Assembly: GCA_963764165.1 (NCBI GenBank)
Contig: CAVXRD010000001.1
Span: forward strand, 1,376,001 to 1,440,000
Direction of reading: 5' to 3'
Length of the DNA stretch: 64,000 nt
Source of the DNA: an uncultured Verrucomicrobiae bacterium
GTDB taxonomy: Bacteria > Verrucomicrobiota > Verrucomicrobiia > Limisphaerales > Palsa-1400
The translations under genes were made by a program, and so were the position numbers. Below, one piece after another: positions 15,900 through 40,001 of the stretch. The stretch's first letter is position 1, and each line of letters begins with the position of its first letter. The notes beneath the pieces are model-generated. The model saw nothing but the letters and a program-made list of their open reading frames with translations. It did no database searches and was not told where the DNA came from.

Positions 15900-16099
15900 C
15901 TACGCCGATTGACAATCAAAGATAATGCTGGAGAAAATCCGTAATAGGCGAGGGTCGGTTTTCAACCGACGCCCATGCTCAGTGCTTTCATCGCAAACCG
16001 CTGATAAACAGAGTTTTGCACTACTCACATGATTCGACAATGGATGTTGGCTCCTCGCAGCAAGCGGTGTGCCCGTTTTGAGTTACACTTCAAGAACAC

Positions 16100-29767: not shown

Positions 29768-32218
29768 ATGATTCGATACGTGTGCATTGTGTTGCTGGGG
29801 CTGGTTTCGTCCGCCATGGCGGGCCCGACAAATTCCATTTTATTCGTGACGCAAGTGCGCGTTCCCGGGGATTTCACGACGATCGCGTCTACCTTCGGCA
29901 GCCAGCTTTCGACACTTGATGCATGCGGCCGCGGCGGCGATCTTTACATTCGCTACCCGGACGGCACGCTGAAGAACCTTACCCGCGCCGCTGGCTACGG
30001 CAAGTGGGGTTCGCAGAACACCAATGGCATCGCTGTGCGCCAGCCGTGCGTCCATTGGTCCGGAAACAAGGCCGTGTTCAGCATGGTCATCGGCGCGCCC
30101 ACGCGGCAATTCGATTACTCCGGCAATTATTTCTGGCAGCTCTACGAAATCACCAATTTCACCAATCCAAACACAACGCCTGTCATCACCAAGGTTCCAA
30201 ACCAGCCCACCAACTACAATAACATCTCCCCGATCTACGGCTCGGATGACCGCATCATTTTCACGAGCGACCGCCCGCGCAACGGCGAGCCGCAACTCTA
30301 CCCGCAGTTGGACGAATACGAGGAAGCGGCCACCGTCACAGGCATTTGGAGCCTTCAACCGACAAACGGCAATTTGTTCATGGTCAATCACACGCCAAGC
30401 GGCGCCTTCTCGCCGATCATCGACAGCGCGGGCCGCATCGTTTTCAATCGCTGGGATCATTTGCAGCGCGACCAGCAGGCGGACACGGATTTTCTCGAAG
30501 GGACAGATGTCTACGGCTGCTTTAACTGGACCAGCGAAGCGTCCAATTCCGTGCCTACGACTAATACGACGGAAATTTTCCCCGAGCCGCGAAACGTGCG
30601 CACGGATTTGCTCGCGGGCACAGGTCTGTTCGGCAACGAATTCAACCAATTCTTCCCTTGGGCCATAGACCAGGACGGCACAGATGAGGAAACGCTCAAT
30701 CATATCGGGCGCCACGAGATTGGCGGGAGCTACGGCAACGCCTCCTTCACCAACGATCCCAATATTCAGGACCTCTATTATTTCGGCGACAATTACAACA
30801 CCAACACCATCGATAATTTTCTCATGGTGCGCGAAGACCCGAACGTCCCGGGATTGTTTTACGGCATTGACGCGCCGGAATTCGCCACCCACAGCGGCGG
30901 GCAGATTGTCTCCATCACGGGCGCGACGAACATCAACGCCTTTTACATGAAGCTCAATTATTTGACACCGCGCTCGACGCATTATTACGCCGATACGTCG
31001 AATGACATCCCTTCCGACTTCACGGGGTTCTATCGCAATCCCATGATGACATCGGATGGCTACATGATTGCGGCGCACACATCCTATCCGTTCGCCGAGA
31101 TGGACGGCGCCGACCCGAACTTCCCGAGCACACCGTATGATTTCCGGCTCAAGTTCCTCGTGATGAGCAATGGCTATTACGCGCCGTCAACCACGCTTAC
31201 GTCTGGCCTGACCAACGTGGCCACCTATTGGTCGCCGGACACGCTCGTAACCGAAACGAACGTACTGTGGGAGTTCGACCCTGTCGAAGTTATCGCGCGG
31301 GCGCGCCCGGTCCCATATTCCGTCCCGCTTCTGCAACCAGAACTCAATGCCTTCGCGCAGGCGGGGGTCGATGTGGCGACGTTCCAGGAATACCTAGTCA
31401 CGCACCAACTCGCCGTGATCGTCAGCCGCGATGTGACGACCCGCGACCATGCGGATCATCAGCAGCCGTTCAATTTGCAAGTCGCCGGCACAACTCATGA
31501 GACGCTGGGCGCTTCGGGCAGGATTTACGACGTTGCGTGGCTCCAGTTGTTCCAAGCCGACCAATTGCGCGGATTGAATTACGGCGACACGAACAACCCG
31601 CGCGCGGGCCGCCGGGTCCTTGCGCAATACCTGCACGATCCCGCGGTGAACAATCCCACAAACGCCTATGCTCCCACCTCGGGAATCAAAATTGCCGCGG
31701 ACGGCTCAACTGCCGCCTTCGTTCCGGCCAGCCGCGCTGTCTCGTGGCAGCTTGCGGATACCAATGGCACCGGCGTTGTCCGCGAGCGCTACTGGCTTAC
31801 CTTCGCCGCTGGGGAAATCCGCAGTTGCACCAGTTGCCACGGCATCAACGAAATGGATCAATCTGGAAAACCGGAACCGACCAACACGCCTACGGCACTC
31901 GTGCAATTGCTGAATTACTGGAAGACCAACGTCTCGGTGACCGCCAACTCTACCATTATCCAGCAGACGAATTATTTTGAAGTAACCTTTACGCGGCAAT
32001 CCGCGGAAACGGGCGTCACCTACCACGTCCAAGCATCCGGCGATTTGACCGCGTGGTCCGACATTGCGACCTACTCCGGTTCCAATATCAATTACACCGC
32101 CCAGGCCCAGGAAGTTTCCCGCTCCGGCTCACCCACCGAGACGATCACCGTCCGCGACGCGTCCGCCATCACGGCCCGCCCCACTCGCTACTTGAGAATT
32201 AATGTGACAAGGCCATAA
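29768..32218 (+). CDS. Secreted beta-propeller protein with hydrazine-synthase-alpha-like middle region and one CxxCH motif
   Basis: Signal peptide; PIYGSDDRIIFTSDR and GRIVFNRWDH propeller motifs; IAADGSTAAFVPA...RERYW...GEIRSCTSCHG; Thr/Ser-rich C-terminal tail. Confidence 0.75.
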   Translation: MIRYVCIVLLGLVSSAMAGPTNSILFVTQVRVPGDFTTIASTFGSQLSTLDACGRGGDLYIRYPDGTLKNLTRAAGYGKWGSQNTNGIAVRQPCVHWSGNKAVFSMVIGAPTRQFDYSGNYFWQLYEITNFTNPNTTPVITKVPNQPTNYNNISPIYGSDDRIIFTSDRPRNGEPQLYPQLDEYEEAATVTGIWSLQPTNGNLFMVNHTPSGAFSPIIDSAGRIVFNRWDHLQRDQQADTDFLEGTDVYGCFNWTSEASNSVPTTNTTEIFPEPRNVRTDLLAGTGLFGNEFNQFFPWAIDQDGTDEETLNHIGRHEIGGSYGNASFTNDPNIQDLYYFGDNYNTNTIDNFLMVREDPNVPGLFYGIDAPEFATHSGGQIVSITGATNINAFYMKLNYLTPRSTHYYADTSNDIPSDFTGFYRNPMMTSDGYMIAAHTSYPFAEMDGADPNFPSTPYDFRLKFLVMSNGYYAPSTTLTSGLTNVATYWSPDTLVTETNVLWEFDPVEVIARARPVPYSVPLLQPELNAFAQAGVDVATFQEYLVTHQLAVIVSRDVTTRDHADHQQPFNLQVAGTTHETLGASGRIYDVAWLQLFQADQLRGLNYGDTNNPRAGRRVLAQYLHDPAVNNPTNAYAPTSGIKIAADGSTAAFVPASRAVSWQLADTNGTGVVRERYWLTFAAGEIRSCTSCHGINEMDQSGKPEPTNTPTALVQLLNYWKTNVSVTANSTIIQQTNYFEVTFTRQSAETGVTYHVQASGDLTAWSDIATYSGSNINYTAQAQEVSRSGSPTETITVRDASAITARPTRYLRINVTRP

Positions 32219-32239
32219 GCCCCGATGCGGCCTCAGCAA

Positions 32240-32447
32240 GGCAGGGACGCCTTTGGGAAGCCGAACTTCGGCCCGAGGCGTCCGGAGTGAGGCGCGATTC
32301 CCGAGCCGACGAACGCCACCCTTGGGCGGAGATACGGCTGTGTCGAAGACCAGCCGCAGCATGTTGAAACGAAAAGCGCGCCTATGGATCGCAACGCGCT
32401 GCGGCTGATTCTTCGTCGCTTCGCTCCTACGAACACAGCCGCGCTCC
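32240..32447. repeat. Degenerate family-A REP followed by a second REP-like inverted pair
   Basis: ggcagggacgcct[insert]ccgaggcgtcc; cggctgtgtcgaagaccagccgcagc ... gctgcggctg...acacagccg. Confidence 0.65.
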
Positions 32448-32505
32448 CTAACATCATCCAATCCGGATATGTGATTTTAAGATATATGAAACTTAAAAGT
32501 ATTAG

Positions 32506-32535
32506 TTGCATAGAAATCAGCCCATGTGCTAGTTT
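32506..32535 (+). promoter_or_regulatory. Putative sigma70-type promoter
   Basis: TTGCAT, 18-nt spacer, TAGTTT with extended TG; AT-rich tract upstream; 12 nt before the leader ATG. Confidence 0.55.
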
Positions 32536-32547
32536 CTGACCCGTTCG

Positions 32548-32718
32548 ATGAAATCTTGCTTAAACACATCAGCCGCAAGCTGGCCGACAATGCGAGTCGC
32601 AACCGCGACACGGCATAGCCGTCCATGCCGCGGCTATGTTTCTAGCCTTGGACTATCCCTGGCCTCCATTGGAAAACAAATTGAAGGCAATTGGAATAGA
32701 CTGGCGGTAAGCAGGTAA
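32548..32718 (+). CDS. Putative 56-aa attenuator leader peptide (MKSCLNTSAASWPTMRVATATRHSRPCRGYVSSLGLSLASIGKQIEGNWNRLAVSR)
   Basis: Translated by hand, as it is shorter than any ORF in the track. Lies between promoter and terminator; the 9 nt before its stop codon form the antiterminator strand. Confidence 0.65.
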   Translation: MKSCLNTSAASWPTMRVATATRHSRPCRGYVSSLGLSLASIGKQIEGNWNRLAVSR

Positions 32719-32740
32719 ACTCTCGATCTGGACTTTATCC

Positions 32741-32777
32741 AACCCTGCTTACGAATCGTAGGCAGGGTTTTTTGTTT
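32741..32777 (+). terminator. Intrinsic terminator / attenuator
   Basis: aaccctgcttacg-aat-cgtaggcagggtt 13-bp stem + ttttgttt; its 5' arm (32744-32752) is complementary to 32707-32715. Confidence 0.85.
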
Positions 32778-33072
32778 CCCTAATATGACCGAATGAACAA
32801 TCCGCAACGAAAGGTGAATAGTCAGTGAGAATAGGAATCGCGACGTCTAAATGATGTCCAGTGGCGGCAAATTGAAAAACGCGAAGACGAGTCTTGACTG
32901 GTCACCGGTGTGGTGTGCCGACGAACCGTCCGCCTCGGTGCCGCAAAATACAAATCGAATTTTACATACAAAAGGCTTCCAAGGAGGTGTGCCTCTAAAC
33001 ACCGAAACAGCCGCCGTGAATCCGCGGGTTGATATCGCAAGATAGCAAGAGGTGTTTGTTCTTTGTTGAGAT

Positions 33073-33111
33073 GGGCTGGGAGATCATTGAGTCTCTCGGC
33101 CCTTTTACTTT
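33073..33111 (+). terminator. Second terminator-like hairpin
   Basis: gggctgggaga/tctctcggccc 11-bp stem (two G-U pairs) + ttttacttt. Confidence 0.6.
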
Positions 33112-33152
33112 CCGTGCGCGGGAATCTCCCGCGCGATCGCGCACACACTTAT

Positions 33153-33225
33153 GAGCCGCGCGCCAGCTTGAGCAGCCGAGTCTCCAAAACTTAGCAACCC
33201 GGGGCAGCACCGGGGCGGCTCGCCA
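33153..33225 (+). tRNA. Non-canonical tRNA-Trp(CCA)-like gene
   Basis: Perfect 7-bp acceptor stem GAGCCGC/GCGGCTC, G73, encoded CCA; anticodon loop CTCCAAA; 5-bp T stem CCCGG/CCGGG with atypical loop GGCAGCA; short degenerate D arm. Confidence 0.78.
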
Positions 33226-33430
33226 CTCATTTGAACGCCAAATTATTAACCCAAGGAAATCCCATGAAAGTTACCCGTCGCTACCAGAGTCAGTTGCTGT
33301 AAAGCAGAAGCTACAAACCTTGCCGCAGAATTCGATTCCGGCCCATCGCGAAATTGAAACTCGTGTTTCGTCCCGGCAATCGATTCTGCATTCGCCCGCA
33401 ATGCAAGCCGTCCGGCAGATAGATAAAACC

Positions 33431-33543
33431 GGTAGGGCGAGGCTCCTGCCGACCCATTCCCATTATTCCTATTATTCCCATACGCCCCATAAGATGAGAG
33501 CGATGGACTTAATGGGACGGCTCGGCGGGATCCCCGCCCTTCC
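33431..33543. repeat. GTAG-footed REP doublet (family B) enclosing CCCAT-periodic repeats
   Basis: ggtagggcgaggctcctgccga ... tcggcgggatccccgcccttcc. Confidence 0.65.
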
Positions 33544-33575
33544 ACGCCTCACAAATAATCAATGCTTACCAACAC

Positions 33576-34706
33576 ATGAACACCATCGAAGAAACTGCCA
33601 CGCGCGTGATTGCCTCGCCCAGCGCCTGGATCGAAGGCGAGGCGCTTCGCCAATTCTATGCCGTCGCAAAGTTTGACGGCATGCGCCAGGCCGTCGCCTT
33701 CCCGGATTTGCATCCGGGCAAAGGTGTGCCGGTGGGCGCGGCTTTCGTGACCGACAGCTTGATATACCCGCACCTTATCGGCGGCGATATCGGGTGCGGC
33801 ATGGCTCTCTTCAAGACGGATTTGCTTCGCAGGAAAGCCCGCCTCGACCGCTGGGCCGGATTGCGCTTCGACCTGGAGCATCGGTGGGAGGGCTCCGTCG
33901 GCGCATGGTTGGGCGCGCGAAATCTCGAACCCACCGAGTTCGATGACGCGCTCGGCACCATCGGCGGCGGCAATCACTTCGCCGAGTTGCAGGCCATCGA
34001 GAAGGTAGTCGATGCCGACGAACTGGCGATGCTTGAGCTGGGCAAGGAGGAACTCGTCATGCTCGTCCACAGTGGTTCGCGCGGATTTGGCGAATCAATT
34101 CTTCGCGCGCACGCAGCGGAACACGGCGGCAACGGCGTAGCTCCTGAATCAATCGCCGGAGAGACATATAGGCGTGGTCACGATCACGCCGTCCGTTGGG
34201 CCAAAGCCCATCGCGAACTCATCGCGCATCGATTCGCTTCGGCGCTCGGCGCGGAGGCATCGCGCATCTGGGACGGCTGCCACAATAGCATTACGCGGCA
34301 GGAAGCCGGCGGCGAAGAATTGTGGATTCACCGCAAGGGAGCCGTTGCTTCGGACAGCGAGTTCGCCGTCATTCCCGGTTCGCGCGGCTCATTCAGTTAT
34401 CTGGTGAAGGCAACTGGCGACGGCGAGAGCCACGCCTGGTCGCTGGCGCACGGCGCGGGCCGCAAATGGTCGCGCAGCGACGCGAGGATTCGGATGCGCG
34501 AACGCTTCAACGCCCCGCAATTGGAGCAAACGTCGCTCGGTGGCCGCGTCATCTGCGAAGAGCGCGATCTGCTCTACGAGGAAGCGCCCGCCGCCTACAA
34601 AAACATTGAGGCAGTGGTGCGGGATTTGGTCGATGCCGGACTCATCTCCGTCATCGCGGCACTCCGCCCGCTCCTCACCTACAAAACGCGCAAGCTCCGC
34701 CGATAG
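33576..34706 (+). CDS. rtcB: RNA ligase RtcB, release-factor-H-coupled type (RtcB2)
   Basis: WIEGEALRQ, PDLHPGKG, DIGCGM, GTIGGGNHFAELQ, HSGSRG, HN, HRKGA, IPGSRG, SLAHGAGRKW, LYEEAPAAYK, LRPLLTYK; short (376 aa) RtcB2-type length. Confidence 0.92.
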   Translation: MNTIEETATRVIASPSAWIEGEALRQFYAVAKFDGMRQAVAFPDLHPGKGVPVGAAFVTDSLIYPHLIGGDIGCGMALFKTDLLRRKARLDRWAGLRFDLEHRWEGSVGAWLGARNLEPTEFDDALGTIGGGNHFAELQAIEKVVDADELAMLELGKEELVMLVHSGSRGFGESILRAHAAEHGGNGVAPESIAGETYRRGHDHAVRWAKAHRELIAHRFASALGAEASRIWDGCHNSITRQEAGGEELWIHRKGAVASDSEFAVIPGSRGSFSYLVKATGDGESHAWSLAHGAGRKWSRSDARIRMRERFNAPQLEQTSLGGRVICEERDLLYEEAPAAYKNIEAVVRDLVDAGLISVIAALRPLLTYKTRKLRR

Positions 34707-34825
34707 CGCGTTGAGTCAAAAATCGGCAATGGGTTTGCGGCGTTAACGCCTGCCCGCGAGCAGCGACGCTGCGAATTCATTGCCGATTCCGCCTTATGAT
34801 CACAGTCAAACAAACACTCTAACTT

Positions 34826-35461
34826 ATGAAAATCAAACGCGCAAAACGCTCGAAAAACAAAACAGTCAAACCTCAAGCCAAGGTCGTCATTAAATTGAGA
34901 CCGTGGGGAGGTTTTATCGACGAGACCTATCGATTGGAATCGGCTCTGGCCAGGAAACCAAAGCTCGTTCACATAGAATTCGCCGGCACCGGCGAAATCC
35001 CAGCCGATTCAGCGCTGCTCATGCGCTCAATCATTCTCAAACGATCCGCCTCCACGCGCATCGTGACCAGCGCCCGATCCAGTTTGCAGGGCGCGTCCGC
35101 GCTCATCTGGCTGCTGGGCGACACGCGCCACATCCGCGAGGACGCCCGGCTGTATTTCGCGCCGGCCGGCCCATTCGTGGCCAGCGATGCGCCCGCAGTC
35201 TGGCGGGATCGAAATTGCTACGGGGACAACGATGAAATTGAAAAGGACGATTACATCCAAGTCCTCCACGCGATCAACGAATTCCTGCCCGTCAAAGAGT
35301 TGGCCGGCAGGCCTGTGGAGATTGCTGTTCTGAAACAATTCGGCCTCGTCGACAACGCGAAGGCGGACGAATTTCTCGCCGCCGCATTTCAGAAGGCAAA
35401 CGTCCAACGCTCCAAACCGCGCGCCACTCGCAAGAAAGAGGTGAAGGAAGCCTCTCGGTGA
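34826..35461 (+). CDS. Hypothetical protein, possibly degenerate ClpP/crotonase-like fold
   Basis: VHIEFAGTGEIPADSALLMRSII...IVTSARSSLQGASALIWLLGDTRHIREDARLYF aligns by eye to the ClpP core; basic termini. Confidence 0.55.
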   Translation: MKIKRAKRSKNKTVKPQAKVVIKLRPWGGFIDETYRLESALARKPKLVHIEFAGTGEIPADSALLMRSIILKRSASTRIVTSARSSLQGASALIWLLGDTRHIREDARLYFAPAGPFVASDAPAVWRDRNCYGDNDEIEKDDYIQVLHAINEFLPVKELAGRPVEIAVLKQFGLVDNAKADEFLAAAFQKANVQRSKPRATRKKEVKEASR

Positions 35462-35508
35462 CTGCGTGGAAAACGGCAGCGTGGAATCTTTGGCACAAGA
35501 TCGCCTAG

Positions 35509-36329
35509 GGCCTGTTAACACTAATTGACATTTTATAGGCGACAAGGCAAAATGGCTGGGTGGAGCTTACAGAGAGTCAATATCAGCGGGTTGCTGATTG
35601 TCTGCCGCGGCAGCGCGGCAACGTGAGCATGACCAATCTGCAACTTCTCAACGCCCTGCTCTATGTGGTGGAGCATGGGTGCAAATGGCGCGGCCTGCCA
35701 AAACATTTTGGCAACTGGCATACGATCTACACCCGCATGAACCGCTGGAGCAAAGCGGGCCTGCTGGATCGAGTCTTCGCCCGGCTCCAGCAGGAGCAAA
35801 TCCTGGCGATCCGGATCGAGCAAGTCTGCTTGGACAGCACGACGATCAAGGCTCACCCCGACGGCACCGGGGCGCTAAAAAAAACGGCCCACAGGCCATC
35901 GGGCGCTCCCGAGGCGGTTGCACCACCAAAATTCATCTGGTTGCCGCGAATGCCCAGTGCGCCTTAATGCTCAAGCTTTCCCCCGGCCAGGCGGGGGACG
36001 CGCCGCAAGGACGCGAGCTTTTGCAGGCGGGCGGGCCGGTTCCGGCAGGGCTTCCACTCATCATGGACAGCGCCTATGAAGGGGACGAGACTCTGCAACA
36101 GGCGCGGGAATTGGGCTACGCTCCAGTGGTTCCTCCTAACCCCCGACGCTTAAATCCGTGGGAGTATGACCAAACCCTTTACCGACGCCGCAATGAGATT
36201 GAACGGCTTTTTCGCCGACTCAAAAGCTACCGCCGAGTCTTCAGTCGCTTCGACAAATTGGATGCGTTGTACTCCGGATTCGTCGTCCTCGCGCTCATCG
36301 TGGAGGCGTTACGTTAGTGTTAACAGGCC
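35509..36329 (+). mobile_element. IS5-family (IS427-group-like) insertion sequence
   Basis: Terminal IRs ggcctgttaacactaa / ttagtgttaacaggcc, flanked on both sides by CTAG (35505-35508, 36330-36333). Confidence 0.93.
35560..36317 (+). CDS. IS5 transposase, two ORFs joined by a -1 frameshift at an A8 tract (35877-35884)
   Basis: ORF A: GCKWRGLPKHFGNWHTIYTRMNRW, LDSTTIKAHPDGTGA. ORF B: IGRSRGGCTTKIH, MDSAYE, YRRRNEIERLFRRLK. Confidence 0.92.
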
Positions 36330-36354
36330 CTAGAGCAAGAGGCCATCGGCGGAC

Positions 36355-36555
36355 GGGCAGACGCATCTGATTTCGGAAGCCTCTGATGCGGGACGCGAGG
36401 CGCGTCCCGCTGCACGCGGGGGCGCGTGCGCTCCCCAGACATAGGAGTTTCGCGAGCGCGAAATCCCTTTCAGGGGAGCACACGCGCCCTCGCGTGTCGC
36501 GGTCGGCGCCCCGCCGACCGCATCTCCCGCAATCCAAATTAAGATGCGTCTGCCC
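36355..36555. repeat. Nested element: 14-bp outer IR enclosing a gggagcacacgcgcc-type REP pair
   Basis: gggcagacgcatct ... agatgcgtctgccc; nearby 10-bp direct repeat ggccatcggc at 36341 and 36557. Confidence 0.7.
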
Positions 36556-36618
36556 TGGCCATCGGCATCAGAAATAAAAAACATGAAAACGAGTCAAACA
36601 TAACCAATAATAAAATCC

Positions 36619-37440
36619 ATGAGCACCACCATCGAAAAAGCACTGCAATTCCAAGAACTCCATCGCCGGCCGGGCGTGTTGTTAATACCGAATCCATGGG
36701 ACGCCGGTTCCACGCGAATTCTCGCAGGTCTCGGTTTCGAGGCATTCACGACATCAAGCGCGGCAGCCGCCGGCATCCTCGGCCGCCGCGACGGAAAGTT
36801 ATCGCGCGAGGAGGCGCTCGCCCATGCGCGAGTGATCGTCGAGGCCACCGATTTGCCAGTGGCGGCTGACTTGGAGCACGGCTTTGGAGATTCTCCCGCC
36901 GCTACCGCGGAGACAATCGAATTGGCGGCGGGCATTGGTTTGGTCGGCGGCTCCATCGAGGACGCCCGCGCGGACCGCGAGAAACCGATTTACGATTTGT
37001 TTCTCGCCATTGAGCGCGTTGCGGCAGCCGTGGAAGCCGCCCGCGCGCTGCCCTTTCCGTTCACGCTCGTGGCGCGGTCGGAGAATTTCGTCCGCGGCAA
37101 TCCAGACTTGGACGACACGATTAAACGGCTGGTCGCCTTTGAAAATGCTGGCGCCGACGTTCTATTCGCGCCCGGCCTTCCGACCTTGGAATCGGTGCGA
37201 GAAGTCTGCGCGGCAGTTTCCAAACCGGTAAATTTTGCGGTTTCCGCTCGCGGCAAATCCCACAGCGTGGCCGAACTCGTGGAAGCCGGCGTCAAGCGCA
37301 TCAGCTTCGCCGGCTCCTTCTATCGCGCCGCAATGACGGGGCTGGTCAACGCCGGACGTGAACCTCGCGAAAAGGGAACATTCACATTTCTTGACCACAC
37401 CATTCTCACCGCGGAATTGAATCAATTCCTCGAAGAATAA
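36619..37440 (+). CDS. Isocitrate lyase/PEP mutase family protein
   Basis: IPNPWDAGSTRIL, TTSS, ADLEHGFG, GGSIED, AGADVLFAPG. Confidence 0.9.
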   Translation: MSTTIEKALQFQELHRRPGVLLIPNPWDAGSTRILAGLGFEAFTTSSAAAAGILGRRDGKLSREEALAHARVIVEATDLPVAADLEHGFGDSPAATAETIELAAGIGLVGGSIEDARADREKPIYDLFLAIERVAAAVEAARALPFPFTLVARSENFVRGNPDLDDTIKRLVAFENAGADVLFAPGLPTLESVREVCAAVSKPVNFAVSARGKSHSVAELVEAGVKRISFAGSFYRAAMTGLVNAGREPREKGTFTFLDHTILTAELNQFLEE

Positions 37441-37447
37441 GATTCTA

Positions 37448-38149
37448 TTAAGTTGACAGGACTGCTCGGTGGCGTTTCGAGCGCACCAACAAGACAGCGA
37501 GCACGATTGGCACAACGAGACGGGCACACGCATCACCCAAACCTGCGTATGCAAAAACCCTCGACCAGGACGACCGCGGCAACGAGATTTGCATATAAGC
37601 ATTTGCCGCAGCCCCGCATCCCATAACGAGAACCAGCAATACCGCGAGGAAAACGGGACGTTTTCTCAACCAGTCACCGAGCTTCCATGCGAGACCAGCC
37701 CGGCGAAGTCCGGATTTCCAGATATATAGGAACAGACAGAGAAGCGTTCCGTAATTGACGGCGAGATAGACCGGCCCGGAAAGCATGTCGTTCGGCAATA
37801 AGCCGTGGGCGGCAATGGCCGACAAACTGGCTGTCGCTGAAGCGATGCGATATACGGCGCCTATCAGTGCTGAGCCAATCACCATCCAGAGGCCCCGATC
37901 CAACCAAACTGAGCCGGCATTCACCTTCGCAAACTCGCGCTCCAAATCGCCGTTTCCTCCAAGCCGGCTCTTGGCCACGGCAAACGCTTCGTGCTCGGAA
38001 AGCCCATTTGATTGAAGCCTGGCGATGGAATCCCGCAGGTGCGTTTCCAACTGCTCCAAGTCGTCAGGCTGGAAAGCAGATGAGCGCGAGAGCTCTTCGC
38101 GCCACGATTCAATTGACTGATTCAGGTCAAACGAGGTTGAGTTTTCCAT
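37448..38149 (-). CDS. Permease-prefix domain membrane protein
   Basis: FDLNQSIESWR...LETHLRDSIARLQSNGLSEHEAFAVAKSRLG followed by TM helices; downstream of PadR. Confidence 0.82.
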   Translation of the reverse strand: MENSTSFDLNQSIESWREELSRSSAFQPDDLEQLETHLRDSIARLQSNGLSEHEAFAVAKSRLGGNGDLEREFAKVNAGSVWLDRGLWMVIGSALIGAVYRIASATASLSAIAAHGLLPNDMLSGPVYLAVNYGTLLCLFLYIWKSGLRRAGLAWKLGDWLRKRPVFLAVLLVLVMGCGAAANAYMQISLPRSSWSRVFAYAGLGDACARLVVPIVLAVLLVRSKRHRAVLST

Positions 38150-38460
38150 AGTTTTAACAGCGTGGAATGGACAGCCATCCACTGATCTTTTTCGGTTTGC
38201 AGTGATTTCGTGCCTTCCCGGCTGAGCCGATAATATTTCCGCCGCCGGCCGTTGTCGGAGGTCTTCCACTCGGATTCAATTAATTCTTCGTTTTCCATCC
38301 AATGGAGCACCGGGTAAAGCATCCCTTCAGTCCATTCGATTTTGCCGTCGGAAAGCTCCCGCACGCTTTGAATAAGCGCATAGCCATAGCTTTCTCCTCC
38401 AGTCAGCACAGAAAGGACGAGCGGGACAGTGCTCGCCGCAATGAGTTCTTTCGATAACAC
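38122..38460 (-). CDS. PadR family transcriptional regulator
   Basis: ESYGYALIQ, EGMLYPVLHWME, GRRRKYYRL. Confidence 0.93.
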   Translation of the reverse strand: MLSKELIAASTVPLVLSVLTGGESYGYALIQSVRELSDGKIEWTEGMLYPVLHWMENEELIESEWKTSDNGRRRKYYRLSREGTKSLQTEKDQWMAVHSTLLKLWKTQPRLT

Positions 38461-38564
38461 GATTTTGACATTAGCCTAGCAGCGTTAGGCTTGCAAGTGT
38501 TTTCTTCTTGAGAACGGGCTGCAGGGAGAATCCAGGAAAGAACCATCACGATTTCCAACGTGAC

Positions 38565-39293
38565 TCAATCATTTCCCTTGCTCAGTCTGTTCCAGATGAT
38601 CTCCGTCTTCTGAGAGTCCTCGACAAGCTCATTTGCTTCCTTTCCAATCGCAAAAGCATTGGTTTCGTAACACTCGATGCAACCCTCCAGAAAATTGCGT
38701 ACGGAGGGGAACCACCGGTAATAGCGAACCTCGGTAAAACGGTAAAAGAAAGCGCCGGAGCCTTCTGCCCTGGATGGATCATAGAAATACCCGTCGCCAG
38801 TCCGATCGTCAAAAACCTGAATCCAGTCCTTCGTGTAACCCGACAGAAGGGAAAACGCTCTGGACTGATGCCACTTTGCGTCTGCCAATTGTCCTTGCAG
38901 CACAAATTTCTCCTCAACGAATTCATCCAGCGGCACAAATCGCTGCCCCGGCAGAAAGCTGCAGACATTGCTTCGCGATTGCCCGTTGTGCCACCGATAG
39001 AGACTGCGAAGGTCCGGTGGCAGTTTGAAGTGCCCCTGCGTTTCCAGTGTGGAAATTTGCGCTTCAGAAAGTCCCGGTTGAAGTGATGCCAGAACGCTCG
39101 GGGCGTTGCTCGACAAACAGGCGGTTAATCGCGCCAGTAATTCTTCAGCGCTTTGGCTTACAACAGGCGGCAGCCGGCCCGGCTTCGGATAAAAGAAGAC
39201 TTCTAGCATTGACGGAATTGAGCAAATAAGGACGCAAATAACCAGCACCACCGCAATACCCGAAACGACAATCCATTTTCGACGGCCCGTCAT
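38565..39293 (-). CDS. SMI1/KNR4 family protein with N-terminal membrane anchor
   Basis: LQPGLSEAQISTLE...LPPDLRSLYRWHNGQ motif. Confidence 0.82.
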   Translation of the reverse strand: MTGRRKWIVVSGIAVVLVICVLICSIPSMLEVFFYPKPGRLPPVVSQSAEELLARLTACLSSNAPSVLASLQPGLSEAQISTLETQGHFKLPPDLRSLYRWHNGQSRSNVCSFLPGQRFVPLDEFVEEKFVLQGQLADAKWHQSRAFSLLSGYTKDWIQVFDDRTGDGYFYDPSRAEGSGAFFYRFTEVRYYRWFPSVRNFLEGCIECYETNAFAIGKEANELVEDSQKTEIIWNRLSKGND

Positions 39294-39376
39294 GTTTTCA
39301 ATTCATTAACGTCATTGCGGAAACATCTCAACAAAGAACAAACACGTCGCTAAGATTCCTGACGGCACAAGATTTT

Positions 39377-39562
39377 ATGAATGATAAACTGAATGAGCCG
39401 ATTGAGCTCGCGCTCAAGCCCGGCGCGAGCTCAAGCTCCAAGCGCCAGCGCTGGAATCCTAAAGATCACAAGAAGTGGATCAAAAAGGTGTATGGAAGCA
39501 AGGTCTATCCAAGCAGTGAGAAAGAATTGGCAGCGGCCCGGGCCGAGAGAAAGCTGATGTAA
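39377..39562 (+). CDS. Putative antitoxin (VapB-like, short)
   Basis: 61-aa basic ORF ending 4 nt before the PIN gene. Confidence 0.5.
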   Translation: MNDKLNEPIELALKPGASSSSKRQRWNPKDHKKWIKKVYGSKVYPSSEKELAAARAERKLM

Positions 39563-39566
39563 AGGC

Positions 39567-40001
39567 ATGATCTACGCGGATACAAGCTGCCTGCTGCCGA
39601 TTCTCCGCCCCGAACCGTTAAGCGAAAGCGTTTGGGAGGCCATTCAGGAGGAATCCGTGGTCGTAATTTCCTCGCTGGCGCAATTGGAGACAATTGTGCA
39701 ACTGAAAGCGCTTTGGACGGGCGGCAGCCTGACTCGCAACCAATGGCGGCGCGTGGAAGCCCAATTCAGCCTTTTGAGAAATCAGGAGCCCTTCGAGTTT
39801 GGCGCGCTTGGCCACTCGGTTTTCCAAATCGCACTGCGCCAGCACCAGAATTCGGGCGCACTGGATTGTCGTTCGATGGATCGCTTGCATCTTGCCGCCA
39901 TGGAAGAATTGAAAATTTCGCGCCTGATGACACACGATGAAAATCAAGCGAAAGCTGCCATTGAAGCGGGTTTCAAAGTCATCCGCCCGGGTCGCGATTG
40001 A
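39567..40001 (+). CDS. PIN-domain (VapC-like) toxin
   Basis: MIYADTS, QLE, MDRLHLAA and MTHD carry the acidic catalytic pattern. Confidence 0.88.
   Translation: MIYADTSCLLPILRPEPLSESVWEAIQEESVVVISSLAQLETIVQLKALWTGGSLTRNQWRRVEAQFSLLRNQEPFEFGALGHSVFQIALRQHQNSGALDCRSMDRLHLAAMEELKISRLMTHDENQAKAAIEAGFKVIRPGRD

Follow-up and report, generated by a model that had tools for sequence, protein, structure and literature searches.

A conserved leader RNA upstream of rtcB2 in a reduced tRNA-array operon of a Verrucomicrobiota order

Layout and distribution of the locus

The window, a 64,000-nt stretch of contig CAVXRD010000001.1 from an uncultured Verrucomicrobiae bacterium, contained an intact rtcB2 gene behind a densely organized leader, with a trailer further downstream. 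The features, in window positions, were as follows:

32506–32535, + strand: predicted sigma70-type promoter (-35 TTGCAT, extended -10 TG-n-TAGTTT)
32548–32718, + strand: uORF1, 56 codons, leader of attenuator 1 (by frame comparison)
32707–32715, + strand: antiterminator strand, directly 5' of the uORF1 stop, pairing with the 5' arm of terminator 1
32741–32775, + strand: intrinsic terminator 1, 13 bp and U tract (terminator scan, shuffles, conservation)
32810–32854, + strand: Shine-Dalgarno (SD) sequence (32810–32817) and uORF2 (GTG, 9 codons; 32825–32854), its stop overlapping the uORF3 start
32842–32858, + strand: 6-bp hairpin masking the uORF3 start codon (6 of 6 pairs in 84/93 loci)
32851–33045, + strand: uORF3, 63–64 codons, traversing the structured RNA
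32958–33077, + strand: undescribed structured RNA, hairpin P1 and three-way junction P2–P4
33052–33073, + strand: boxA-like segment, 5' strand of the leader–trailer helix (pairs with 39324–39345)
33073–33110, + strand: intrinsic terminator 2 (or 5' processing hairpin)
33153–33225, + strand: array-type tRNA-Trp(CCA), encoded CCA end, short D loop, GGCAGCA T loop
33253–33422, + strand: SD and broken gene for a conserved Arg/Lys-rich protein of ~51 aa, TAA at 33300–33302
33426–33548, no strand assigned: dispersed genomic repeat (81 BLAST hits in the genome), inserted where relatives carry tRNA-Ile and tRNA-Phe
33576–34706, + strand: rtcB2, 376 aa, intact
34826–35461, + strand: array cargo gene, 211 aa, weak ClpP-like lead
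36619–37440, + strand: PEP-mutase-family gene, common to other tRNA-poor operon copies
39324–39345, + strand: trailer, exact 22-nt complement of 33052–33073
39377–39562, + strand: short ORF, putative remnant, where an HNH gene follows the trailer in relatives (only the first residues alike)

The initial annotation had placed a promoter-like sequence, a 56-codon ORF, a terminator, chained ORFs, a further terminator, a tRNA-Trp-like gene and RtcB2 in this order, and both order and coordinates held. It had overlooked the structured RNA (32958–33077), the trailer (39324–39345) and the nature of the locus as a tRNA-array remnant. A single-sequence scan found 6 terminator-like sites where 4.3 were expected, and a simple, strict promoter scan returned no + strand promoter; evidence from the one sequence was thus weak, and proof lies in conservation.

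The leader RNA was found in 123 of 401 genomes of the order Limisphaerales, in loci that share kinship, so that the counts given here overstate independence. Under strict filters the RNA model matched 0 of 150 genomes of the phylum outside the order, and the RNA pattern had 0 matches in viral contigs. Rfam covariance models (riboswitch, T-box, tRNA, Y RNA) gave four chance-level matches in 30000–37000 and none in the leader. No description of the leader was found in the open literature covered, which included a term search of a 2026 preprint on intergenic RNAs.

A long tRNA-array operon occurs across this one order of Verrucomicrobiota, and the window carries a paralogue of it in reduced form. 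A second copy, tRNA-rich and without rtcB, lies at C2 of the same genome, and paired tRNA-rich and rtcB2-bearing copies occur in three other genomes. The reduced layout, including the PEP-mutase gene, recurs in loci L094, L116 and L074. All arrays seen were oriented in the same way as the leader.

The leader RNA and the leader–trailer helix

The -35 and -10 elements were alike, at the same spacing, in the 28 homologous leaders shown (of 84), and the predicted start site is ~6–8 nt upstream of the uORF1 ATG; an SD-like word preceded uORF1 in 0 of 84 leaders. In 92 of 108 loci the uORF1 frame stayed open over 45 or more codons and ended at most 20 nt from the antiterminator; the other two frames did so in 25 and 10. 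In several exceptions (L071, L074 and L079) a shifted frame ended at the same place. An overlapping 24-codon frame (32636–32710) was rejected as the leader, since it reached 45 open codons in just 28/108. All 20 amino acids were encoded by 70 of 85 uORF1 sequences, compared with 3.6% of windows from the genome's proteins and 8.6% of shuffled sequences; this full content was seen in 30 of 32 tRNA-rich loci versus 6 of 13 tRNA-poor ones.

The antiterminator formed 8–9 of its 9 pairs in 104/108 loci, and the pairing appeared in the nascent RNA fold in 94/96. Terminator 1 folded better than shuffles (z -2.8) and, on the full RNA, was more stable than the antiterminator, so that the switch would need kinetic control and transcription–translation coupling. 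The architecture is that of a whiB7-like uORF attenuator, and by comparison a matching function is predicted. The earlier proposal of attenuation instead of RtcR/sigma54 control is well supported by comparison. No rtcR was found, which sets the locus apart from rtc operons of the RtcR/sigma54 type, and the promoter carried no sigma54-type -24/-12 site, judged by the consensus.

Downstream of terminator 1, uORF2 was present in 88 of the 93 loci having uORF3, with an SD-like word before it in 70/93. The uORF3 frame was open in 100 of 116 loci versus 25 and 29 for the other frames, with dN/dS of 0.98–1.05 (1,500 sampled pairs), i.e., the frame is kept without selection on the peptide. The distance from the uORF3 stop to the boxA-like word was 14–15 or 19–20 nt in 71 of 81 loci. 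These features point to a relay of uORF2 and uORF3 through the structured RNA, which is new here. The structured RNA had no Rfam match; two-sided changes were found in 6 of its 17 pairs, and 97.8% of cells were paired. The RNA model scored the window copy at 129 bits. P2 covaried in no case, and a pseudoknot between GGTGT of the P1 loop and ACACC, competing with P2, is possible, but its columns are invariant. In the P1 loop, AGGAGGTG matches the 3' end of the 16S, and no start codon accompanies it. A coding role for this RNA was rejected: each half of uORF3 gave a dN/dS of ~1, and the RNA persisted in several copies with a frameshift.

The word TGYTCTTTR occurred in 89 of 117 loci. In the window, the boxA-like segment shares TTTGTTCTTT (10-nt identity) with a word in the rRNA spacer of the same genome, and it resembles, in sequence only, the E. 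coli and B. subtilis boxA consensus quoted in PMC13753749. Terminator 2 folded better than shuffles (z -4.5), and its hairpin and U tract were seen in 88/107 loci; an RNA antiterminator against it was looked for and not found. The boxA-like segment and the trailer pair over 22 bp (-41.8 kcal/mol), and the window trailer carries the matching half of a change found in this locus alone. Matched changes on both strands also occurred in L068, L091, L101 and L123. A leader–trailer helix like those of rRNA operons brackets the whole unit, for which it may serve a similar role. The trailer was present in 23 of 61 loci, directly 3' of the last tRNA in, e.g., L068, L070, L080, L083, L085 and L092, and an HNH gene started after it in 12 of the 23. 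It was not found in 38/61, many of whose sequences may stop short of its position, nor in the tRNA-rich paralogue of the same genome. The genome encodes NusB, Rho and RNase III, and its 16S is closed by its own boxA-like leader–trailer helix.

The tRNA gene, RtcB2 and other cargo

The tRNA-Trp gene of the window differed from the family by one D-stem mismatch and one G-U change, went undetected by ARAGORN and Rfam, and folded no better than shuffles (z 0.42). Homologues were found in 60 of 117 non-redundant loci. A canonical tRNA-Trp(CCA) is also located on C2, making the window gene redundant with the housekeeping set. With 0 tRNAs by ARAGORN and one tRNA-like gene, the window lacks the long tandem run of an L-array, which the C2 paralogue has; orthologous loci held up to 29 tRNA calls. 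The tRNA-Trp gene is the survivor of ~20 lost tRNAs. The module had been taken for the supplier of one atypical tRNA; it is seen here instead as derived from a long tRNA-array operon after loss of the tRNAs, every array tRNA being atypical.

The rtcB2 product scored 414 bits with TIGR03073 (cut-off 271.8) and also passed the cut-off of PRK09588. It is the sole RtcB gene of the genome, and PrfH was found neither in the operon nor in the genome (97% complete), which confirmed the initial annotation of an RtcB2 without PrfH. A hidden PrfH was rejected: only frames of the size of RF1, RF2 and ArfB appeared, each below the cut-off. Across the order, RtcB2 occurred in 45 of 401 genomes, mostly behind the leader, and PrfH in 1 of 401. 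The architecture, whose absence upstream of related rtcB genes was to have spoken against the module, proved real and conserved there, with a covarying RNA: 34 of 46 RtcB2 genes were located downstream of the structured RNA on the same strand. Four further RtcB2 genes stood directly behind attenuator 1 without the structured RNA, and in L255 an RtcB2 gene with 10 kb of upstream DNA had no leader. RtcB2 is described as working alone in PMC13166195. In the literature on the RtcB2–PrfH ribosome rescue and repair pair (PMC9304027, PMC13166195), the repair of 16S rRNA, not tRNA, is shown for E. coli RtcB2 only, and one paper places the overwhelming majority of RtcB2 genes in a two-gene operon with prfH; the window protein passes the RtcB2 model, yet prfH is neither adjacent nor in the genome.

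A 12-aa ORF with SD (33264–33302), previously noted as a separate element, turned out to be the 5' part of a 52-codon frame that is intact in relatives and broken here by a TAA at codon 13; a role as leader peptide is thereby ruled out. The residue after the TAA, otherwise an invariant Arg, has also changed. The encoded basic protein had 1,703 homologues, those named among the 120 listed all being ‘hypothetical’, and no match in Pfam, PDB or Atlas. A likeness to ribosomal bL34 was not supported. Homologues of the 211-aa cargo gene were present in 15 other retrieved loci, of which two are one and the same place, and its Atlas lead (PF00574) covered 20% of one cluster.

Proposed control, alternatives and known systems

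We read the locus, with a probability of about 0.68, as what is left of a long tRNA-array operon inducible by stress: its control region and its protein cargo would remain, nearly all of its tRNAs would be gone, and RtcB2 would now be its main output. The conserved control region probably turns on this RNA-repair enzyme when protein synthesis stalls. A ribosome at the uORF1 stop would cover the antiterminator strand, letting terminator 1 form and end transcription, whereas with a stalled or absent ribosome (drug, damaged ribosome or shortage of charged tRNA) the antiterminator would pair first and RNA polymerase would continue. Shortage of any charged tRNA as the trigger would account for the all-20 content of uORF1. 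The next step, of which we are less sure, is based on the likeness to boxA. A second ribosome would begin at uORF2, unfold the hairpin over the uORF3 start and re-initiate; after crossing the structured RNA it would halt 14–19 nt ahead of the boxA-like sequence and block it, and terminator 2 would act. If no ribosome translates uORF3, the RNA would fold and NusB–S10 would load as on rRNA operons, taking the polymerase past terminator 2 and through the untranslated array. The trailer may then pair with the boxA-like strand, drawing the operon into a loop in which RNase III-type processing could take place or the complex could be released. The resulting RtcB2 would reseal decoding-centre cuts in 16S rRNA, with no need for PrfH. 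Taken as a whole, this would be an order-wide two-gate translation sensor, in which an all-20 uORF attenuator is followed by a uORF relay gating an rRNA-type antitermination site, and spare non-canonical tRNAs and a PrfH-independent ligase would be made and processed like pre-rRNA (one loop, leader–trailer helix) only when ribosomes fail; we offer this complete scheme tentatively, at less than even odds.

The role of everything beyond attenuator 1 might be simpler. If attenuator 1 were the sole switch, the structured RNA would bind a protein or serve processing or stabilization (e.g., as a 30S-binding SD-like site or an RNase III stem), terminator 2 would in fact be a hairpin for processing, and antitermination of the Nus type would play no part. 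The four RtcB2 loci that retain attenuator 1 alone, the 16S match of the P1 loop without a start codon, and the fact that boxA-like words in this organism belong to rRNA processing stems are in keeping with this, but it leaves aside the openness of uORF3 through the RNA without peptide selection, the fixed distance from its stop to the boxA-like word (71/81 loci) and the U tract at hairpin 2 (88/107 loci), and we consider it rather unlikely. The window copy is also partly decayed: uORF1 encodes 18 of 20 amino acids, with Asp and Phe missing, the basic gene is broken, the repeat lies before rtcB2, and the bracket encloses an IS5 as well as three genes on the opposite strand. Together with the loss of tRNAs and the lower all-20 content of tRNA-poor loci, this would suit a decaying duplicate, in which the family mechanism is real but the leader and rtcB2 of the window are heading to silence or expressed without control. 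Nevertheless, every uORF is intact, and so are the two terminators, the RNA (at 129 bits), the perfect 22-bp bracket with its matched change, and rtcB2, the genome's only RtcB; the reduced layout recurs in L094, L116 and L074, with paired copies in three other genomes. We consider this decaying-duplicate reading improbable.

The 22-bp inverted pair could alternatively mark where a mobile or invertible DNA cassette ends and have no role as RNA. L-arrays have a patchy distribution and are considered to spread horizontally in the account of PMC8421152, an HNH nuclease gene comes after the trailer, and homogenization at the DNA level could yield matched changes. However, the pair stays linked to the promoter-leader and to the HNH gene although both are located outside it, all arrays seen share the leader orientation, the 5' strand belongs to a folded RNA, and matches were absent from viral contigs and limited to single tRNAs in phage and plasmid records. 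This explanation is very improbable.

The operon family, as we read it, resembles L-arrays, which PMC8421152 describes as redundant sets of up to ~30 tRNA genes neighboured by rtcB and an HNH gene, with the trn operon of Anabaena PCC 7120 (stress-induced and co-regulated with rtcB) as type example; the same source lists L-arrays for Verrucomicrobia and reports induction of the Anabaena array by translational stress. The window has the linked rtcB, but HNH only as a remnant and a single tRNA. The C2 array gave only single-tRNA matches against plasmids and phages (blastn), with no DNA similarity to plasmid-borne arrays. Control of the Anabaena array is ascribed to promoter repeats and the repressor TrcR (PMC10272220), in contrast to the uORF attenuators, structured RNA and leader–trailer helix of the window, where the TrcR-type pattern of repeats over the -10 box given in PMC8421152 had one match, at 16079, and none in the promoter. 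In the whiB7 attenuator, as presented in 10.1101/2023.06.02.543512, uORF translation favours the terminator and stalling the antiterminator, and the uORF of M. smegmatis codes for all amino acids other than cysteine. Attenuator 1 shares with whiB7/wblC a uORF that ends on an antiterminator competing with an intrinsic terminator and a broad amino-acid content. It differs from these actinobacterial systems in phylum and sequence, in two more uORFs and a second terminator, and in an output of tRNAs and an RNA ligase instead of a transcription factor. As in rrn operons (PMC10250234, PMC13753749), the start of a long untranslated transcript carries a structured element followed by a boxA-like word, which pairs with an end trailer; here, however, the helix brackets tRNAs and protein genes, an overlying uORF could gate the boxA-like word, and the NusB site is putative.

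Standard annotation overlooks every RNA and peptide part of this locus. To our knowledge, a ribosome-gated boxA on a tRNA operon and a leader–trailer helix around one would each be the first, and we know of L-array switching in one cyanobacterium only, via a repressor. In the present case, an operon of this kind would be controlled in an entirely different way, through RNA, by parts that are open to testing; among them are an RNA fold that Rfam lacks and a long-range helix of a type so far belonging to rRNA operons. The order also offers a lineage-wide natural example in which RtcB2 persists and PrfH is missing, relevant to the question of whether ribosomes must be rescued before they are repaired, and it links more than 1,700 unnamed small basic proteins to a tRNA-array response. 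Many arrays carry the basic gene without rtcB2.

Identity and conservation of the locus

A re-scan of the sequence found the parts named in the initial annotation at their assigned positions on the + strand. That annotation had described a ribosome-sensing operon supplying an atypical tRNA and an RNA ligase when translation fails; its logic was mostly right and the locus is real and conserved, but it belongs to a larger, known kind of operon. Evidence from the single region was weak, since ARAGORN and Rfam gave no match in the leader region and terminator-like sites were not above chance (6 vs. 4.3 expected, single sequence), and the case therefore rests on comparison.

Features of the locus and of its paralogue
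32548-32718, +, uORF1
32741-32775, +, terminator 1
32958-33077, +, structured RNA (helices P1-P4)
33052-33073, +, boxA-like segment
39324-39345, +, trailer, 22 perfect pairs with the boxA-like segment
G000:C2:1558700-1561830, minus, L248, tRNA-rich paralogue on another contig (C2) of the window's genome: same leader, intact basic gene, 20-amino-acid uORF1, no rtcB, no trailer

A 121-base leader probe matched 123 of the 401 genomes of the order (Limisphaerales), and the exact leader pattern occurred in at least 119 stretches among named genomes, the matches listed being titled mostly Verrucomicrobiota/Limisphaerales. The RNA model matched none of 150 genomes sampled from the rest of the phylum. 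Among 60 fetched loci, the tRNA order after the leader was usually fixed (Gly-Trp-Ala-Met-Tyr-Asp-Pro-Arg-Asn-Ser-(basic ORF)-Ile-Phe-(rtcB2)-Thr-His-...). At a relaxed threshold ARAGORN called as many as 29 tRNAs per locus, and close RtcB2 homologues in relatives were located within such arrays. The C2 copy combines the same leader with a tRNA array, while the window copy retains the leader, tRNA-Trp, a broken basic gene, and rtcB2 with other cargo. Similar pairs of copies in G323, G393, and G241, together with a PEP-mutase gene that the window copy has in common with L094, L116, and L074, themselves reduced, indicate from sequence comparison that the window locus is a recurrent reduced form of the long tRNA-array operon. 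Though partly decayed, it is quite likely functional. Degenerate tRNA-like genes, among them one that ARAGORN called tRNA-Stop(tta), apparently close the L248 array after ∼2.6 kb.

Long tRNA-array operons are already known from Anabaena, and Verrucomicrobia are listed among their carriers (PMC8421152, in part). For the control region, structured RNA and leader-trailer helix, no published description was found in the main texts of the open-licence literature.

A homologue of the tRNA-Trp-like gene is present in 60 of 117 loci, and changes in its acceptor and T stems are compensated. The odd elbow of this tRNA is typical of array tRNAs; the GTTC T-loop motif was missing from 589 of 618 array tRNA calls and present in 45 of 46 housekeeping tRNAs. 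One D-stem pair is mismatched in the window copy. What had been read as a 12-aa ORF is the 5' start of a gene for a 51-aa basic protein (dN/dS 0.2; 1,703 homologues), broken by a TAA that may be a sequencing error.

RtcB2 without PrfH

The large ORF is RtcB2, as proposed, and the genome (97% complete) contains no PrfH, no second RtcB and no RtcR, in agreement with control independent of RtcR. Within the order, RtcB2 occurred in 45 of 401 genomes (46 genes) and PrfH in one, encoded behind rtcB2 within a tRNA array (L247, G226:C308); this fits capture of an rtcB2-prfH pair with later loss of prfH. The leader RNA precedes 34 of the 46 genes on the same strand. Four of the other 12 lie directly behind attenuator 1, one has no leader, and seven are on contigs ending too soon, four of these amid tRNAs. 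L262 and L263 are minimal units with promoter, uORF1, terminator 1, basic gene and rtcB2, devoid of structured RNA and tRNAs. Since E. coli RtcB2 repairs 30S subunits, not tRNAs (PMC9304027, in part), and is able to work alone (PMC13166195, in part), the likeliest output of the locus by analogy would be 16S repair without PrfH, a shift to tRNA repair being a less likely alternative.

Attenuator 1 and uORF1

Leader loci numbered 142, of which 135 had the full leader and 117 were non-redundant; 108 fitted the terminator pattern and nine were dropped. The uORF1 frame was open for at least 45 codons, with a stop within 20 nt of the antiterminator strand, in 92 of 108 loci, compared to 25 and 10 for the other two frames. 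The 9-nt antiterminator strand is complementary to the 5' arm of terminator 1 and pairs with it in 94 of 96 loci when the nascent RNA is folded before the 3' arm emerges; in the full-length fold, terminator 1 outcompetes it. Attenuator 1 would respond to ribosome stalling on uORF1, the same logic as in the whiB7 leader (10.1101/2023.06.02.543512, in part), and we put the probability that it is a genuine uORF attenuator at roughly 0.85. All 20 amino acids were present in 70 of 85 uORF1 peptides (dN/dS 0.45–0.58), vs. 3.6% of 56-residue genome-protein windows and 8.6% of shuffled sequences; the count is 18 in the window copy. This property was found in 6 of 13 tRNA-poor and 30 of 32 tRNA-rich loci (Fisher p 0.001, uncorrected for kinship).

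Two hairpins within uORF1 (32590-32640, z -3.15) are a possible pause site that would help ribosome-polymerase coupling. A conserved element (ATCCGGATAT...TCAAGAT-like) at 32458-32505, which many homologous leaders also carry 5' of their -35 box, is possibly a regulator site.

Second module and leader-trailer helix

uORF2 (GTG start, nine codons; present in 88 of 93 loci) stops at the uORF3 start, and that start lies inside a 6-bp hairpin in 84 of 93. uORF3 was open in 100 of 116 loci at a dN/dS of about 1, which is the mark of a putative ribosome track and not of a protein. Its last third overlaps the 120-nt structured RNA, tested for covariation on 65 of 110 distinct sequences. The 17 proposed pairs were 97.8% paired, six with two-sided changes, statistics inflated by kinship and with helix P2 invariant; 0 of 500 shuffles reached this level, and slid controls gave 36–54%. 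In the P1 loop, AGGAGGTG (32982-32989) is complementary to the 16S 3' end, with no start codon behind it, and can alternatively pair with ACACC in a pseudoknot replacing P2. In a record titled Oligoflexales (L158:2474-2595), only the first half of the RNA (P1 and ACACC) is matched.

The boxA-like word ends the RNA in 89 of 117 loci, 14–20 nt 3' of the uORF3 stop and directly before the terminator 2 hairpin, with its U tract (88 of 107 loci); ten bases of the boxA-like word are identical to the genome's own rRNA spacer. A distal reverse complement of the boxA-like segment was found in 23 of 61 loci (score at least 13, second-best 6–11, two local hairpins excluded) and not within the sequence covered for the other 38, nor anywhere in the genome for the C2 paralogue. 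In those full arrays that were checked, this trailer comes directly after the final tRNA; the start of an HNH gene follows it in 12 of the 23 loci. A base change peculiar to the window locus was present in both helix strands, and the 16S of the same organism is closed by a comparable helix likewise starting with a boxA-like word. BoxA loads NusB-S10 into a complex that resists termination (PMC13753749, PMC10250234, both in part), and NusB, Rho and RNase III are all encoded in the genome. A ribosome on uORF3 would gate the boxA-like site; boxA gate and processing helix jointly are a tentative proposal, somewhat less probable than not.

Within the leader-trailer bracket are an IS5-family transposase in two overlapping frames (35560-36317) and, on the minus strand, a PadR pair with an SMI1/KNR4 gene (37448-39293); a PIN-domain gene (39567-40001) lies immediately 3' of the trailer. 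Dispersed palindromic repeats at 32231-32448 and 33426-33548 had 22, 159 and 81 BLAST matches in the genome. An 816-aa secreted-looking protein (29768-32218) had no NCBIfam match; in L125 and L126, homologues of it lie ∼4 kb 3' of the same leader.
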